Shown: piece by piece, positions 2 to 8,342 of the stretch
Layout of the letters: every line of letters begins with the position of its first letter
Position numbering within the stretch: position 1 is the stretch's first letter
Virus record (IMG/VR): IMGVR_UViG_2675903509_000012
DNA length: 8,824 bases
Strand: one strand, 5' to 3'
Source of the DNA: a virus
Taxonomy: Duplodnaviria > Heunggongvirae > Uroviricota > Caudoviricetes
The notes under the pieces: model-generated
Told to the model about the DNA's origin: nothing
Database searches by the model: none
What the model saw: the letters and a program-made list of their open reading frames with translations, nothing else
Position numbers and translations under genes: made by a program

Positions 2-649
2 CGAATATATGTTTTTCTTCTTTGCTGCTCTAGACTTAGATCCTTTAAGTCGATTAAAGGAGCAGCACAACGTTGGGCAAAGAGCTTTGCCAGAGTATGT
101 AAAGTAGCAATGATTTCTCTCTTACCTGCACATGGCACCGTAAGAATTTTTGATGCTAACTCCGATGATAGGCAAAATTATTATGGAACAAATCTTCGGA
201 CAGCTCTACAAACTTTAGGAAAAGATCTTGGAGTTTGTAGTTTAAACACAAGGGAAATAAATAGAGCTCCCACATCTGGTGATGCCGGGTTTGACCTAAT
301 TGCTACAGTGGAATTTCCTGATGGTCAAACTAGCAACTATGGAATTCTTGGTCAATGTGGTGCACAAGAAACAGGGTGGCCAAGCAAAACATTAGAGGCT
401 AACGTGTTAAAACTGACCACCTATTTCCAAATTGCGTTCCAGCATCCATCAACAATGTTCACGCCTGTTTTCTATCGGGAAGCAAATGGCGAATGGGTAA
501 GCACACACGCAACCGCTGGGGTATTATTATTAGATAGGTTGAGAATCATATATCTACTTGATAAGGCAAACCAATGGGAAGCGATAACTACCTCTGATTG
601 GTTTCGCGAATTTGAGGAAGAGCTTTATACATTAAATCCAGAGCCTTAA
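2..649 (+). CDS. 5'-truncated gene of unknown function (start lies left of the window); candidate restriction endonuclease or other effector paired with the adjacent m5C methyltransferase
   Basis: The frame of the listed 110..649 ORF has no stop codon back to position 2, so the listed Met is probably internal. It ends at TAA 647-649, 7 bp from the stop of the convergent methyltransferase. Both genes are visibly more AT-rich than the phage backbone. I recognise no family motif by eye. Confidence 0.6.
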   Translation, partial: RIYVFLLCCSRLRSFKSIKGAAQRWAKSFARVCKVAMISLLPAHGTVRIFDANSDDRQNYYGTNLRTALQTLGKDLGVCSLNTREINRAPTSGDAGFDLIATVEFPDGQTSNYGILGQCGAQETGWPSKTLEANVLKLTTYFQIAFQHPSTMFTPVFYREANGEWVSTHATAGVLLLDRLRIIYLLDKANQWEAITTSDWFREFEEELYTLNPEP

Positions 650-656
650 TAGCTTA

Positions 657-1601
657 TCAATCCCATAATTCTATTGGCAATGCCTTCGTTACAGCTTCAA
701 AAAGCGGCGGAGGCACTGCATTACCAACCACCGTGTATTTCATGCCAAGACTTGCAGCATTTGTTTCTGGAAACACTAGATCCTCAAACCCTTGTAATAG
801 TGCTGCCTCTCGAAAACTGAATCTGCGAGCTCTCCGATCCTCAACAAATCTCCATTCATCAGTTCTTACTTTCTCCATCGGAGGACTGACAGGATGCAAC
901 GGCATATGCCTTGCATTAGCAACTATTGTCTTTGAAATTTGATCCCAATCCTGGCGACGATTGCGAGACATATAATACCAATGGAATCCCATATCATAAA
1001 ATTCACCTTCTGGCCATTCAGGTAAATGCCCTATAGCATCTTTAATAGTAACATAGTTGACGCCAGTTGCTGGCCCATGAGTTGGCTGAGGGAACTCGTA
1101 CTTAACTTTGAAATCATTACGGATTCCTACGATAAATATTCTTTTTCTTTCCTGCGCTACTCCATATTCAGCCGCATTTAAAACTTTTGCGGAAACAGTA
1201 TAACCTGCTTCAGTAAAAACCCTGATCTGGTCAAATAACAAATGCTCAAAATTTTTTCTAACCATACCAGACACGTTTTCTACTATAAAAGCTTTAGGCT
1301 TTATATTGTTTAAAGCTCTAGCAAACTCTAAATAAAGAGTATTAATTTTTCGATCGGCTTTACGCGCACCACCCTGGCTGAATCCCTGACATGGATAACA
1401 ACCTACCAGCAAATCAGATTTAGGAAAAGTAGTTACATCAGCAATATTGCCTAATATGTAATCAGTTTCTGGATGATTGGCAATATAAACATCGCGCGCA
1501 TACGGCAAGATATCGTTGGCCATAAGCACATCAAAGCCGGCTCTCAAAACCCCCGCATCGGAACCACCGCATCCAGAAAAAAGTGAAACTACTGTTGGCA
1601 T
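657..1601 (-). CDS. DNA (cytosine-5)-methyltransferase, small Type II-like m5C MTase
   Basis: 314 aa with the canonical m5C-MTase motifs in order: SLFSGCGG (motif I, AdoMet binding), GCYPCQGFS (motif IV, catalytic Pro-Cys), FIVENVSGM (motif VI, ENV), QERKRIFIVG (motif VIII), FREAALLQGFED (motif IX), TVVGNAVPPPL (motif X). ATG at 1601-1599 is preceded by the SD AGGAGG (complement of 1605-1612). Confidence 0.9.
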   Translation of the reverse strand: MPTVVSLFSGCGGSDAGVLRAGFDVLMANDILPYARDVYIANHPETDYILGNIADVTTFPKSDLLVGCYPCQGFSQGGARKADRKINTLYLEFARALNNIKPKAFIVENVSGMVRKNFEHLLFDQIRVFTEAGYTVSAKVLNAAEYGVAQERKRIFIVGIRNDFKVKYEFPQPTHGPATGVNYVTIKDAIGHLPEWPEGEFYDMGFHWYYMSRNRRQDWDQISKTIVANARHMPLHPVSPPMEKVRTDEWRFVEDRRARRFSFREAALLQGFEDLVFPETNAASLGMKYTVVGNAVPPPLFEAVTKALPIELWD

Positions 1602-1802: not shown

Positions 1803-4079
1803 TTATTGTTTAACTGAAAAAACCGACCACTCATTAGCGACCGGATACGTGAATTTTTTCCCGTCATAATTTACGGTTGCCCCACGCGCCAGCGCCTCAA
1901 GCTCCCATCGCTGCGGCCTGATACCGTTCTGAGCAAGGTCAACGCGGATACGGGTAATTTGCATTCGTTCCGACCGGGTCAGTCTGGCCGATGGTGCCAT
2001 TTCATGCGGTTTTAACGGGCTTCCGTTTCTTTGCTGGCGATTTGGTGTTCTCAGGCCATGTTTTAATGCACCTCTGAGCGCCCTCACGACCTCCGGGTCA
2101 TTCCATTCGATGACACCGTCATCAACCAGATTAAGCACTGCTGCGGCGTGCTCAGAAGGTGTGGGAGCTGGTAACGAAGTATCACCACCGGTGAGCTTTC
2201 CACAGTTATTGACAGGACTCCGAGGCGCGGCGATGCCGCTTTTTAAAGTCAAAGGCTCAACGACCGGAACTTTCGGCACAATGCGCCAGTCCGTCGTTCT
2301 GGTGATATGAATATGACGCGCGCCGAGATGCGGCGCGTAAATGCCGACCACTCTCTCGACTTCTTCCTCGTACTCGTTAACGTCATCCGACGGGCTACGG
2401 GCGACCCTGACAGTCTGACAATCGCGCGGGACATTTGCCCCGCCCTGCGCGCTGATATACAACGCAAAATCACCACTGTCTGCAGCGGCGCGTGCAGCCT
2501 CGACGCGCTCGTCAAACTCATGAGCAATGCTGACGCCGCGAGGCAATTTGCGTAGTTCACGGTAAGCCCCCATTGTCGGCAGACCAACCGTTTTAAATTG
2601 CGGGATGCGCCACGTTGACGCCCATGCGGTAACAGCCGCGGCAGTGTCTTTCAGCGGTCTGCCGGTATCATTATCGAGCTGACCATCCAGTGCATATCCG
2701 TCGATATTTTTTGAGATGTATTTCGCGATATACCCCGCAGCACCGCCCCGGTTAAGGTGTTTCGCCTGAAAACGGTTTCGCGCGGCTCCTCTTTCGTCGC
2801 CATCCTCTTTGAGCGCATAGCGACGCATGATTTCGATAATCTGGTTACGCTGGCGTGGATTACAAAAAAGCATCATATGCCAGTGCGGCGTTCCGTCGTG
2901 GTGTGGCTCGACGACTCGCAACCCGTAGACCTGTAAATCATTATCCTTGAATGCCGTGCGCATCAGGCTCCAGATACGGCAGAGATAACGCTGCGCATCC
3001 TTTGGATTAAATGCCTCATCGTTCCAGCCGTGATTTAGCTGGACGGTTTTACTTTCGCCTTTTCTGACCTGACGTGTCGGATGATACTTTGACGGCGCGG
3101 TCAGCGTGATAAACATCCCCACATCACCCTCTGCGGCGGCGTAACGCTCAATACCGGCGATGGTGTTCATCAGCTCCATCCGGCGAATTTCAGGATTAGA
3201 AATACTGCCCATCACCTTACTGATAAGGTCGATGCGCTCGCCGGTTTCCCTGTTTTCAAGGTCACACGATTTAAGAAATTCCAGATTTGCCTGGCGGCGT
3301 GCACGTACATCACGAATGGCATGTTTACTGGCATAAGGAGAACGGTCTTTATTCACCTCCCCGACAGCAATCAGTAACGCCTCATGCCAGCGCATACGCT
3401 GGCCTTTAAGCTGATGAGTCCACCACTCATCGTTAAACAGACGGGCAATGGCAGAATATGCCTGCCTCGTGGTTATCTGTCCTTTACGGTATTTTTTCCA
3501 GTAGAGCGGGGAAATATTGAAAGCACGTGCAGCGCCAGCAACATGACCATACAGATGATCCTGCGCCTCATCCGTAAACAGCGATTCTTTTTCGCCATGC
3601 GCATCCACCCAGGCATCGCAGAGTTCCTCATACATCATGAAAAGCTGCGATGAGATACGGGCGGCAAACTTTTTCAGCTCCTTGTCATTCATCCCCGGCA
3701 GACGCGCATAATGGTCACGCTCTGCCAGAAACAGCAACGACGCGTCGGTGTTCATTTCATGGCGCTGATTCACACGCTCAATGCGCGGCCATAAACGACG
3801 CTGAAAAGTGGATGTGAGAAAATAAAACCCGTGCACCGGGCTTTTATTGCGCCGGATGTAGTCATAGCGTGAAGTAAACAGCGAGCGCAAAAAGTAAGGC
3901 AGGCGGTTAATCGTGGATAAAACACCTTGCACCTGACGCATCTCGTCACGTGTAAGGGGTCTTTCGCGCCCGACGGCCTCGCGTGGCGCGTTCCATGCAT
4001 AAGCACCGGTAAACGTCTTACCGGTGCCTGCGGCAAATGCTGACGGAGGGACAAAACGCCCGGAGGCTTTAACGGCCAT
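1803..4079 (-). CDS. A: P2 gene A-like replication initiator (rolling-circle nicking endonuclease)
   Basis: Roughly 760-aa product, near-colinear with the P2 A protein as I recall it (MAVKASGRFVPPSAFAAGTGK... N-terminus). The ORF-track start at 4121 is a TTG; the in-frame ATG at 4079 gives the MAVKASGRF start and overlaps the stop of the upstream small ORF. Confidence 0.92.
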   Translation of the reverse strand: MAVKASGRFVPPSAFAAGTGKTFTGAYAWNAPREAVGRERPLTRDEMRQVQGVLSTINRLPYFLRSLFTSRYDYIRRNKSPVHGFYFLTSTFQRRLWPRIERVNQRHEMNTDASLLFLAERDHYARLPGMNDKELKKFAARISSQLFMMYEELCDAWVDAHGEKESLFTDEAQDHLYGHVAGAARAFNISPLYWKKYRKGQITTRQAYSAIARLFNDEWWTHQLKGQRMRWHEALLIAVGEVNKDRSPYASKHAIRDVRARRQANLEFLKSCDLENRETGERIDLISKVMGSISNPEIRRMELMNTIAGIERYAAAEGDVGMFITLTAPSKYHPTRQVRKGESKTVQLNHGWNDEAFNPKDAQRYLCRIWSLMRTAFKDNDLQVYGLRVVEPHHDGTPHWHMMLFCNPRQRNQIIEIMRRYALKEDGDERGAARNRFQAKHLNRGGAAGYIAKYISKNIDGYALDGQLDNDTGRPLKDTAAAVTAWASTWRIPQFKTVGLPTMGAYRELRKLPRGVSIAHEFDERVEAARAAADSGDFALYISAQGGANVPRDCQTVRVARSPSDDVNEYEEEVERVVGIYAPHLGARHIHITRTTDWRIVPKVPVVEPLTLKSGIAAPRSPVNNCGKLTGGDTSLPAPTPSEHAAAVLNLVDDGVIEWNDPEVVRALRGALKHGLRTPNRQQRNGSPLKPHEMAPSARLTRSERMQITRIRVDLAQNGIRPQRWELEALARGATVNYDGKKFTYPVANEWSVFSVKQ
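2209..2228 (-). other. Candidate origin nick site inside gene A
   Basis: The - strand reads GCGCCTCGGAGTCCTGTCAA, which matches my recollection of the P2 ori sequence nicked by the A protein. It lies in the distal part of A (codons for AAPRSPVN), as in P2. This is recalled, not searched. Confidence 0.45.
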
Positions 4080-4344
4080 ATGAGCCAAAAGCCTCTGAAC
4101 AACGCTTGCTGAGTTGCTCAACCTGCGCGTTTAAATCAGCAAAAGATTTTGCGCTTCCGGTCAGAATATCGTGATGCATCAGGCCGGAAACGAGCTGGCT
4201 TAATTTCGGGTAATAACCAACCACCGACAGCCATTCCTGACCGGCGTTTTTACCGCTTTCCGCTCTCTTTTTCTCGTGGAGAATAAACTGAAAGCTGTCA
4301 CTGGTAACGACATAACGTTCGCCAATTTCAATACGAATACTCAT
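4069..4344 (-). CDS. Hypothetical small protein of the early operon (position of P2 orf83)
   Basis: 91-aa ORF. Its ATG overlaps the stop of the upstream ORF (ATGA) and its stop overlaps the start of A. Order and size fit the P2 orf80-83 block. Confidence 0.7.
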   Translation of the reverse strand: MSIRIEIGERYVVTSDSFQFILHEKKRAESGKNAGQEWLSVVGYYPKLSQLVSGLMHHDILTGSAKSFADLNAQVEQLSKRCSEAFGSYGR

Positions 4345-5655: not shown

Positions 5656-5849
5656 TTCCAGACCCTCCGGCTTTTCAGAAAGGTCAGAGCCTTTTTTAAC
5701 GGACTCTGTTTTTTGGTGCGGATAATGATTCCCTTGCGACCCTTCCCGTGGGTGATGGTGAAGTCAATCGCCCTGGGGCTTTCGTTACGCAGTAACTGAG
5801 CAATACAACGCGGCTCATTCATAATCACAACCCCATCCACAAAAGCCAT
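5652..5849 (-). CDS. Hypothetical small protein between cox and B (position of P2 orf78)
   Basis: 65-aa ORF whose stop overlaps the B start (ATGA). An alternative in-frame ATG at 5822 lies 2 nt after the cox stop. Support is positional only. Confidence 0.5.
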   Translation of the reverse strand: MAFVDGVVIMNEPRCIAQLLRNESPRAIDFTITHGKGRKGIIIRTKKQSPLKKALTFLKSRRVWK

Positions 5850-6112
5850 GCATCACGCTGTTCAACCGGTCGGTTATAAAACGCCTCACGTACAGCGCGA
5901 TTAAACTCAGGAATGAAAACCCATTTTTCACCGGCACGAGCCTTCGGTTTGCAAGGATCACGCAATTCAATAATTGGTAATTTATTTGCCTTCACCATTT
6001 CACTGACGGCTGTCTTTGGCTTCCCTAATAAATCAGCAAATTTATCCACATGAACCGCATCAAGCGGATACTGAATCACATAATTTTCAGCGTCCATATA
6101 TGGTACCCTCAT
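5825..6112 (-). CDS. cox: Cox-like excisionase/directionality factor and early-promoter regulator
   Basis: About 90 aa, first gene of the early operon and divergent from the C repressor. The C-terminal pattern KLPIIE...AGEKWVFIPEFN...RDAWLLWMGL resembles P2 Cox as I recall it. The internal ATG at 6097 has a better SD (GAGGG) than 6112 and gives a 90-aa product. Confidence 0.8.
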   Translation of the reverse strand: MRVPYMDAENYVIQYPLDAVHVDKFADLLGKPKTAVSEMVKANKLPIIELRDPCKPKARAGEKWVFIPEFNRAVREAFYNRPVEQRDAWLLWMGL

Positions 6113-6233
6113 AGGATCCAGCCCTTTCTAAACCACTCAAAACCGTTTAGACGCTGGTTTATTCTCAAATCAATGGAACCTATATAGGTTCCAGTTTTGA
6201 GGGAATTTAGTCCCTATATAGGCACCATGTCAA
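6113..6233. promoter_or_regulatory. Immunity switch between cox and C, with candidate repressor operators and early promoter
   Basis: Perfect 18-bp palindrome GGAACCTATATAGGTTCC at 6175-6192 and a second CCTATATAGG at 6213-6222. On the - strand a consensus -35 TTGACA (complement of 6228-6233) is followed about 18 bp later by a -10-like TAAATT (complement of 6204-6209), so the repeats flank the candidate early-promoter -10. Confidence 0.55.
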
Positions 6234-6527
6234 ATGAAATTAAGCGAAAAGATTAAGGCCTTGCGTGAGGCTGAAGGGCTAAGCCAATCAAAATTCTGTG
6301 AAATCATAGAGTTACCGCTAAGCACACTTAAAAAATATGAAGGAGGAAACTTTGAACCCGGTGGCACAGCTTTGCTAAAAATCACTATGCATCCCACATT
6401 CCAAAAATATGCTCTATGGCTTATGACAGATAAAACCGCGCCGGACGCAGGACAAATCGCACCGGCTCTCGCGCACATTGGGCCAGAGTCAACAGAGTCC
6501 AACCACTCCGCGAAAAGGATTGGCTAA
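6234..6527 (+). CDS. C: P2 C-type immunity repressor
   Basis: 97 aa (P2 C is 99) with an N-terminal helix-turn-helix-like region. The C-terminal half (HPTFQKYALWLMTDKTAPDAGQIAPALAHIG) closely resembles P2 C as I recall it. Divergent from cox and upstream of int, as in P2. Confidence 0.85.
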   Translation: MKLSEKIKALREAEGLSQSKFCEIIELPLSTLKKYEGGNFEPGGTALLKITMHPTFQKYALWLMTDKTAPDAGQIAPALAHIGPESTESNHSAKRIG

Positions 6528-6596
6528 CTCTATATAAAGATTACATTTTCACCATTTGCTACCAAGATGGTGAATACAGCGCCGGAGGGCTTTCTT

Positions 6597-7577
6597 ATGG
6601 CAATTAAGAAGCTCGATGACGGTCGCTATGAAGTGGACATTAGACCTCGCGGTCGCGACGGAAAACGCATCCGCAGGAAATTCGAAAGAAAAGCTGAAGC
6701 ACTAGCATTTGAGCGATACACAATCGCCAATGCCAGTCAGAAAGAATGGGGAGGCCAGCGAGCAGACCGCCGAACTTTGAGTGAGTTGCTGGACATCTGG
6801 TGGAAATATCACGGGCAAAACCACGAGCATGGAACAAAAGAGTTTAATCATCTACTCAAAACCATCAGCGGCATAGGTGATATACCAGTGAGCCGGATGA
6901 GCAAAAGGGCTTTGATGGATTATCGTTCCATGCGACTACGTGATGGTATCAGTGCCGCAACGATAAACCGTGACATGTACCGATTATCCGGCATGTTCAC
7001 AAAATTAATTCAATTGGATGAATTTTCCGGGCAACACCCAATTCACGGACTGCCGCCACTGGCGGAGGCCAACCCTGAAATGACGTTCCTGGAAAAAGCA
7101 GAAATCGAAAAACTGTTAAATGTTTTGGCTGGTGATGACTTACTTGTCGCGCTTTTATGTCTGAGCACTGGAGGAAGATGGACGGAAGTTGCCACGCTAA
7201 AACCAGCACAGATTACAAATTGCAGGGTTACCTTCCTGAAAACCAAAAACGGTAAAAAGCGAACCGTGCCGATTTCTGAGGAACTGGAGAAAAAAGTTAA
7301 AGAGGAGGCCAGCGCCAAATTATTCAAAGTTGATTATGAGAAATTTTGCGGGATTTTACGCAGAGTGAAACCTGATATACCACCCAATCAGGCAACCCAC
7401 ATCCTGCGGCATACATTCGCAAGCCATTTCATGATGAATGGGGGCAATATAATCGCACTGCAACAGATTCTGGGACATGCGAGCATTCAGCAGACGATGG
7501 CCTATGCGCACCTTGCGCCTGACTACCTGCAAAATGCCGTCGCTCTGAATCCACTAAAAGGCGGAGTGACGTTATAA
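6597..7577 (+). CDS. int: Tyrosine integrase, P2 Int family
   Basis: N-terminus MAIKKLDDGRYEVDIRPRG matches the P2 Int start as I recall it. C-terminal catalytic signature of tyrosine recombinases: R (TGGRWTE), HxxRH (HILRHTFASH), LGH and the tyrosine in MAYAHL. ATG 6597 has the SD GGAGGG 7 nt upstream; the ORF-track start at 6567 lacks one. Confidence 0.9.
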   Translation: MAIKKLDDGRYEVDIRPRGRDGKRIRRKFERKAEALAFERYTIANASQKEWGGQRADRRTLSELLDIWWKYHGQNHEHGTKEFNHLLKTISGIGDIPVSRMSKRALMDYRSMRLRDGISAATINRDMYRLSGMFTKLIQLDEFSGQHPIHGLPPLAEANPEMTFLEKAEIEKLLNVLAGDDLLVALLCLSTGGRWTEVATLKPAQITNCRVTFLKTKNGKKRTVPISEELEKKVKEEASAKLFKVDYEKFCGILRRVKPDIPPNQATHILRHTFASHFMMNGGNIIALQQILGHASIQQTMAYAHLAPDYLQNAVALNPLKGGVTL

Positions 7578-7763: not shown

Positions 7764-8264
7764 CTACTGGGAACGTGAGTTGCTACTACTCAATAGCTTC
7801 AACGATGAACTTTTTTGCCATTGCGTCACGTCACGCAACTGCTCCATTCGTTGTTGATGTTTCTCGTTTAAAACCGCTTGCTGCTCCGGCGTTAACAGGC
7901 GATACATTTGGTTGCGGACTTTTGCCATCTCAACCTGACGAGCAATTTGCTCATTCGCCATTTTTTCTGCCTGTGCGCGCACAGCGTTTTCATCAAAATT
8001 TTCTGCGGTGACAAGGCGATGCATTGTCTCCAGTTCGCTAACATTAACAGGAGGCTGTTCGTGCCGGGCCTGTTGCATAAGATCTCGCATCTGCTGACGC
8101 TGATGTTCGGTTAAACTTATGCCGTCGAACATATGGCTCTGCGTACTGCGCTGCGTAAGTTCTTCACCCGGATGCCAGTTATCGCCTGAACCGACTTCAG
8201 CAGCGTGGCTTAATGAACTGACTGCCAGCGTTGAGGCCATGACGGCAGCGGTAACTATGCGCAT
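7764..8264 (-). CDS. cpxP: Periplasmic Cpx-pathway adaptor/inhibitor CpxP
   Basis: Translation matches E. coli CpxP as I recall it ([21 protein letters not shown] signal peptide, [15 protein letters not shown]). The ATG at 8264 has better SD spacing (GGGAG) than the listed 8267. Confidence 0.93.
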
Positions 8265-8342
8265 CATTTGCTCCCAAAATCTTTCTGTCGCGATTCAACG
8301 ATAGAGAGTTTACGATTCAGGCTGCAAACATGCGTCAGGGGG

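Follow-up and report, generated by a model that had tools for sequence, protein, structure and literature searches.

The immunity switch at the C-cox-int end of a P2-like prophage raises the question of which sequences the C repressor uses to silence the early promoter, and whether a short palindrome that is repeated around this promoter could be its operator. The switch studied here lies in a DNA stretch of 8,824 nucleotides from a Caudoviricetes virus (IMG/VR record IMGVR_UViG_2675903509_000012), below called the window. It covers one end of the prophage, with C, cox and int, next to the presumed host gene cpxP. We consider it highly probable that positions 6174-6233 constitute the early promoter Pe together with its operator, in a P2-type switch of the WPhi architecture and the L-413C class, where two C dimers would block Pe. 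The evidence comes from the anatomy of the sequence, homologies of the encoded proteins, natural operator mutations in lytic isolates, and conservation of the repeats across lineages.

The decamer CCTATATAGG occurs exactly two times in the 8824 bases, at positions 6179-6188 and 6213-6222 (34 bp start to start), and a search allowing one mismatch yielded no further copies within the window. The chance expectation is 0.09 matches; two or more matches were obtained in 2 of 200 shuffles. Both 10-bp cores are perfect palindromes. Copy 1 sits in a perfect 20-bp palindrome, TGGAACCTATATAGGTTCCA (6174-6193), and copy 2 in the 16-mer GTCCCTATATAGGCAC. The latter is symmetric at 14 of 16 positions, and the 16-mer around copy 1 is symmetric at all 16. 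We term the 16-bp sites O1 (copy 2, promoter-proximal) and O2 (copy 1, promoter-distal). Non-palindromic direct-repeat half-sites, described as a trait of the family (PMC2995052), are thereby replaced at this locus by symmetric ones. A search of the window for a third C site (CCTAWWTAGG with at most two mismatches) gave 7 matches versus 9 expected, and therefore no site in addition to the two operators. A longer 20-bp unit, TGG-NN-core-NN-CCA, was considered and dropped in favor of G-NN-core-NN-C, because only positions -3 and +3 recur across lineages.

The sole sigma-70-like promoter that a scan of positions 5900-6700 detected is on the minus strand. It combines TTGACA and TAAATT with an 18-nt spacer (10 of 12 matches), and its -10 hexamer lies between the two copies of the decamer. 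O1 takes the same location as the O1 site of WPhi. O2 corresponds in place to the WPhi O2 site, at about +7 to +24 of the Pe transcript, if the start site is put at about 6197-6199 as suggested by the WPhi constructs (PMC1904263). Two repeated candidate C-binding sequences are hence arranged on both sides of the Pe -10, as expected from the sequence of a P2-type switch. An earlier note on this DNA had described the two decamers 34 bp apart, the palindromic nature of the half-sites themselves, and their position around the early -10 in the manner of the P2 C operators, and all of this holds. The perfect 18-bp palindrome that it reported around the first copy is real as well, although its full length is 20 bp. 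The claim that the -35 hexamer overlaps the C start codon does not stand: the hexamer directly abuts the ATG at 6234-6236, and overlaps only a 9-codon out-of-frame ATG at 6227-6229.

The C protein is similar to the P2 C structures 2XCJ and 2L49 (phmmer search against PDB, E 1.9e-21, residues 3-97) and matches Pfam HTH_3 and phrog_147 (6e-39). Like other homologs of P2 C of about 100 aa, it has an N-terminal helix-turn-helix (HTH) and the C-terminal segment GQIAPALAH. It aligns with WPhi C from residue 1 at 56% identity, and is 43% identical to P2 C. Within one immunity group C proteins are at least 95% identical (PMC3448106); since both values are far under this limit, the immunity class is separate from those of P2 (class I) and WPhi (class III). 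The operator CCTATATAGG also differs from GTTTAGAT of P2 and TATTGGTGAC of WPhi. The poorly conserved P2 C residues Y31, S35, Y36 and R41 have been proposed as base readers (PMC2995052), and the corresponding residues in the window C are L, K, K and N. The C gene (6234-6527) has zero nucleotide differences from those of the phages L-413C and R18C, and a 1241-bp region shows 7 differences from L-413C, of which 3 lie within the operator/-10 stretch. At the sequence level, these comparisons uphold the suggestion of the earlier note that the immunity specificity is distinct, and support assignment of the switch to the L-413C immunity class rather than to the P2 or WPhi classes. A full-text literature search with CCTATATAGG matched no phage paper. 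Karlsson et al. 2006 reportedly distinguished seven P2-like immunity classes, with direct repeats mentioned for them in a general way. The L-413C-type class is almost certainly one of these seven.

By 2007, P2, P2 Hy dis and WPhi were the only such phages with located operators (PMC1904268). The P2 half-sites are 8 bp long, 22 bp apart (centre to centre) and flank the Pe -10; those of P2 Hy dis are also 8 bp long, 26 bp apart, and flank the Pe -35; those of WPhi, where the operators were proven experimentally, are 10 bp long, 34 bp apart, and flank the Pe -10 (PMC1904268). The closest architecture to the window is that of WPhi and not that of P2. The Pe strand of WPhi reads TTGACA, GTAACC-TATTGGTGAC-T, TATATT, CCCGTCAAAAGGTTGTG-TATTGGTGAC, and in the same layout the window reads TTGACA, TGGTG-CCTATATAGG-GAC, TAAATT, CCCTCAAAACTGGAA-CCTATATAGG-TTCCA. 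Both have the order cox, Pe with operators, C, int; in each, two 10-bp sites are spaced by 34 bp, with one inside the Pe spacer and the other past the start site; and both have the junction TGTCAA followed by ATG, where the -35 abuts the C start codon. In contrast to the palindromic CCTATATAGG, the WPhi operator TATTGGTGAC is non-palindromic, the Pe spacer of WPhi has 17 nt versus 18 nt, and the cox-proximal spacer of the window is about 16 nt shorter. With P2 the window shares full-length C homology and two sites flanking the Pe -10, and P2 Pe converges with the opposing promoter Pc. Unlike the window, P2 has non-palindromic 8-bp direct repeats (GTTTAGAT) and a -35 that, as annotated in the RefSeq features, overlaps the C start.

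To find how widely the repeats occur, C relatives were collected from genome and viral contig collections, and their Pe regions were read. Ten lineages were obtained, including contigs named Enterobacter hormaechei, Dryocola, Symbiopectobacterium and Arsenophonus, as well as IMG/VR contigs; in the seven for which the value was computed, C is 61-86% identical to the window C. In all ten, the Pe spacer contains a site of the CCTAWWTAGG type and another such site lies downstream of the -10, with a spacing of 23, 29, 32 or 34 bp between the two and otherwise unrelated flanks. Among the resulting 20 sites (two per lineage), core positions 1-2 (CC), 4 (A) and 7 (T) are invariant, positions 3 (T) and 8 (A) are conserved in 18 sites each, and positions 9 and 10 (G, G) in 19 each. 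The two central bases are always A or T. The outer G at -3 is present in 16 sites and the outer C at +3 in 11. Since the CCTAWWTAGG motif is retained amid diverged flanks and spacing, it travels with this C subfamily independently of context. Because TATA, AATT and ATTT variants all occur, direct reading of the central AT step is improbable, which would agree with the P22 and 434 operators.

Some members of this set are unusual. In Arsenophonus nasoniae pArsFIN13 (530-700), the C homolog stops after 56 codons and the operators CCTAATTAGG and CCTATATAGG, 23 bp apart, are intact. In Enterobacter hormaechei and Dryocola, a related C and the same operator pair face an early gene that is not cox-like and whose product begins with MSTTRKSTTKKAAS, which implies that the C/operator module is used outside of the classical cox context.

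The phages L-413C and R18C provide natural mutations of the two sites. L-413C forms clear plaques and derives, as a lytic variant, from a temperate phage (PMC2893161; PMC3448106), and R18C was described as virulent (PMC6823313). Over the 1241 bp compared, R18C differs from the window at 6 positions and L-413C at the 7 mentioned above, and each has exactly one substitution per operator. In L-413C these are 6176 G>T in O2 (the outer G at -3) and 6222 G>T in O1 (the last G of the core); in R18C, 6188 G>A in O2 (the last G of the core) and 6214 C>A in O1 (the second C of the core). The chance that at least two of 6-7 single-nucleotide differences per 1241 bp fall within the 32 operator bases is about 0.01 per phage. 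In WPhi, one mutated half-site is tolerated in vivo, and repression is lost only when both are mutated (PMC1904268; PMC1904263); the pattern of one change per operator fits this need. With their intact wild-type C genes, L-413C and R18C look like operator (vir-type) double mutants. Unlike these lytic phages, the window has the operators that are wild type in most prophages. In phage HQ103 (recorded host Y. pestis EV76-CN), C is instead truncated by an internal 7-bp deletion. The switch of phage vB_YpM_50, with the same recorded host, is fully wild-type, and the phages P2_AC1 and P24B2 likewise have the wild-type switch.

The switch was found at 99% identity or above in 420 of 5426 complete E. 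coli genomes (about 8%), and 314 of these 420 prophages are identical to the window over 6168-6236. The switch of E. coli ATCC 8739 is identical to that of the window. Segment 6170-6199 is intact in 415 of them and segment 6205-6234 in 407. None of the four substitutions of the lytic isolates (6176, 6188, 6214, 6222) is present in any of the 420. The 69-bp R18C sequence, used as a query, gave no match, because its two substitutions leave no 28-base word in common with the wild type; a prophage with either of them singly would have been detected. Among 36 IMG/VR copies, changes inside the 16-bp operators within the compared region are confined to the contig that carries the R18C substitutions.

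The 3' end of the Pe -10 (6203-6205) is a polymorphic hot spot among the prophages. The change 6204 A>G, which converts TAAATT to TAAATC with loss of the conserved last T, is the only difference over 6168-6236 in 80 of the 420, and 6203 G>A occurs alone in 7, within the -10 region and outside the repeats. In the prophage of strain 41EC2, positions 6204 and 6205 are changed together. These variants may be promoter-down mutations that lock the prophage in.

Taken with the WPhi and P2 precedents, these data suggest the following mechanism. A dimer of C (a dimer by homology with P2 C) would bind each near-palindromic 16-bp site, GNNCCTATATAGGNNC, that is, G-NN-CCTATATAGG-NN-C. On O1 it would fill the spacer between the Pe -35 and -10, and on O2, 34 bp away, it would lie just past the Pe start site. 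With both operators occupied, RNA polymerase would be excluded from Pe or trapped there, cox and the replication genes would stay silent, and lysogeny and immunity would be maintained. The C and int genes would be transcribed rightward from a weak promoter near the start of cox, and this transcript would have to cross both operators, converging with Pe.

The same proposal can be compared with the lambdoid repressors. P2 C resembles P22 c2, and the recognition helices are 26 A apart in both (PMC2995052). As in P22 c2 and 434, a symmetric HTH dimer would sit here on a palindrome with an AT-rich centre. The lambdoid switches differ in having a tripartite OR versus two operators, and in a RecA-cleavable domain that is absent from the window C. 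Cro-type competition for the same sites is also not shared, because Cox has operators of its own.

The other half of the switch is related to WPhi and P37. Cox matches Pfam Phage_Cox (1e-23) and phrog_272 (2e-47, residues 1-90 of 90), and its identity is 82% with WPhi Cox and 88% with the P37 protein. It is encoded opposite to C and int, which follow one another on the plus strand at the prophage end, as in other P2-type switches. On the minus strand, further early genes lie between cox and the presumed replication gene. The preferred cox start is the ATG at 6097, which gives a 90-aa protein with GAGGG upstream and the end-to-end phrog_272 match, and agrees with the 273-nt RefSeq cox genes of E. 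coli genomes and several phage records. An alternative ATG at 6112, used in the L-413C record, gives 95 aa. The spacer between cox and C is 136 nt long. Its cox-proximal half is conserved with P37 and WPhi, whose operator halves differ, and contains a 7-bp inverted repeat (TCTAAAC 6127-6133, GTTTAGA 6145-6151). Segment 6098-6160 is the probable location of the cox ribosome-binding site, of the weak Pc promoter and of Cox-binding sites. Because Cox is 82% identical to its WPhi counterpart and L-413C has the WPhi attP core (PMC3448106), yet C is only 56% identical, the switch is a mosaic in which a C/operator module of another kind adjoins a WPhi-like Cox/int module; the recombination junction lies at about 6150-6160.

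No consensus Pc was detected on the plus strand in the standard scan, and a relaxed scan yielded only candidates with 7-8 of 12 matches, which is chance level. For this reason, face-to-face Pe and Pc promoters with overlapping transcripts, as proposed in the earlier note, are inferred from homology with P2 and WPhi. The overlap is 82 nt in WPhi and about 35 nt in P2, and the WPhi Pc starts 60 nt from O2 (PMC1904263). By analogy, the Pc start in the window should be near 6110-6120.

Several other roles for the repeats were considered. The distal palindrome could act mainly in RNA, as a 5' stem-loop or attenuator-like hairpin in the Pe transcript with an antisense partner, controlling stability or read-through, while the second copy would be incidental. 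Indeed, TGGAACCTATATAGGTTCCA with its T-rich tail scored as terminator-like on the minus strand, and when the Pe leader (6160-6200, minus strand) is folded, its 5' end forms the distal palindrome hairpin (-29.2 kcal/mol, z -2.5). A 9-11-bp stem, AAAAGGT...ACCTTTT, places the distal operator in a 12-nt loop in the switches of WPhi, P37, SI7 and the Klebsiella type, and the arms around the distal core vary between lineages with complementarity kept. However, the spacer copy, which forms no hairpin and is conserved in all ten lineages, is left unexplained by an RNA function, and the core is conserved in sequence rather than in pairing alone. The R18C change at 6188 merely turns a G-C pair into G-U, which would leave the hairpin nearly as stable as before; nevertheless, the other copy is changed as well. 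We therefore regard a mainly RNA-based function as unlikely; a hairpin role may well coexist with the operator function.

Even less probable, in our opinion, is that the repeats are Cox sites or Pc elements instead of C operators. Cox does act in the same intergenic region of P2-like phages (PMC3448106), and a weak plus-strand promoter candidate has its -10, TAGGTT (6185), within copy 1. That candidate has only 7 of 12 matches, no better than chance. Given the similarity of Cox to the WPhi and P37 proteins, the entirely different repeats in the operator halves of those phages indicate that the repeats track C and not Cox, and the block that is conserved along with Cox is the cox-proximal segment 6098-6150. 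Finally, the pair could be an AT-rich palindrome that was repeated by chance and has no part in regulation. Promoter regions often contain short palindromes of this composition, and the shuffles occasionally reproduced the pair. But the exact duplication is placed precisely around the -10, the motif is conserved across genera despite variable spacing, and paired mutations are confined to lytic isolates. We give this explanation almost no credence, and the comparative data effectively refute it.

Some observations weigh against the assignment of O1 and O2 as C operators. For a pair of recognition helices that enter successive major grooves, a palindrome of 10 bp is short, so that the symmetric-dimer model needs the outer G and C, which are less conserved than the core (see the counts at -3 and +3 above). 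Among the 420 E. coli prophages, 18 are changed somewhere within the two 30-bp segments. A link between the lytic phenotype of L-413C and R18C and their operator substitutions is suggested by sequence comparison, and L-413C has an additional -10 change, 6205 A>G, which recurs beside 6204 A>G in the 41EC2 prophage. Pc has no consensus match, and the convergent layout is accordingly drawn from homology. The literature search returned no binding, footprint or transcript mapping data for the L-413C-type class.

The coordinates of the switch elements and the neighboring genes are given in the table.

Features of the switch region and of the surrounding prophage end (positions in the window)
Feature	Position	Strand	Description
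O1, promoter-proximal candidate C operator	6210-6225		GTCCCTATATAGGCAC, core CCTATATAGG 6213-6222; inside Pe -35/-10 spacer
O2, promoter-distal candidate C operator	6176-6191		perfect 16-bp palindrome GAACCTATATAGGTTC, core 6179-6188
Pe -35	6228-6233	-	TTGACA (TGTCAA on + strand); directly abuts C ATG 6234-6236
Pe -10	6204-6209	-	TAAATT; aligned with WPhi TATATT, then CCC(G)TCAAAA
Cox-proximal half-spacer	6098-6160		probable cox ribosome-binding site, weak Pc and Cox sites
C	6234-6527	+	97-aa immunity repressor; HTH_3 N-terminus, conserved P2-C C-terminus
cox	5825-6097	-	90-aa Cox-like excisionase and Pc repressor; first early-operon gene; Pfam Phage_Cox, phrog_272
int	6567-7577	+	tyrosine integrase; Int_N and Phage_integrase domains; 3' of C, same orientation, prophage end
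cpxP (host gene)	7764-8267		past int; identity taken from the product sequence of the open reading frame
772-aa open reading frame	1803-4121	-	taken as P2 replication gene A homolog by size and position only
Cytosine DNA methyltransferase gene	657-1601	-	
Open reading frame	110-649	+	only C-terminal half of phrog_3984 matched

Over an 801-bp region, several Peduovirus records are 100% identical to the window, R18C is 99.8% identical, and Yersinia phage L-413C 99.5% (99.3-99.5% over the switch region). Beyond the presumed replication gene, the methyltransferase gene and the adjoining open reading frame (together 110-1601) resemble cargo of the restriction-modification type. Position 6620, a third codon position in int, is C in the window and T in 36 of 36 IMG/VR copies, in L-413C and in R18C, and is thus a private variant. 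A search against Rfam at the gathering threshold found no RNA family anywhere in the window.

Other repeats are found at the same two places in classes whose C proteins have other recognition helices. Direct repeats resembling TATTGGTGAC occupy these places in WPhi and SI7, an inverted pair based on TTAATGAC is present in P37, and some IMG/VR classes of P2-type C have plainly palindromic sites, GTTC-N7-GAAC, GGTTC-N8-GAACC and GTACATATGTAC. The two sites are inverted relative to each other in P37, E. coli C11 and Klebsiella WOUb02. The description of the P2-type C family by direct repeats may be too narrow. We tentatively propose, while leaning slightly to the contrary, that in the C subfamily of the window each "half-site" is a complete palindromic operator to which one C dimer would bind symmetrically, and that the same applies to the classes with GTTC-N7-GAAC, GGTTC-N8-GAACC and GTACATATGTAC sites.

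Except for its palindromic operator sites, the switch is an ordinary member of a well-studied family. The switch type is a textbook one, the class has been in databases since the sequencing of L-413C, and the known logic of the P2-type switch is unaltered. What is new is that the operator is defined as a conserved palindrome and that L-413C and R18C are interpreted as double operator mutants. The 16-bp palindromic operator would account in molecular terms for the lytic growth of L-413C, the phage of plague diagnosis, and of the "virulent" R18C in spite of an intact repressor. If so, both would be vir-type mutants of a common E. coli prophage, made operator-constitutive by their two substitutions, and both are predicted to plate on lysogens of the same class. 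The study of the P2 C structure left open how a symmetric dimer binds non-palindromic repeats (PMC2995052), and a C homolog with a palindromic operator offers a simpler system for this question. If each repeat is indeed a complete operator, this class would be a natural system for how a symmetric C dimer reads DNA, and the textbook binding of P2-type C to non-palindromic direct repeats would be a degenerate special case of two palindromic operators.

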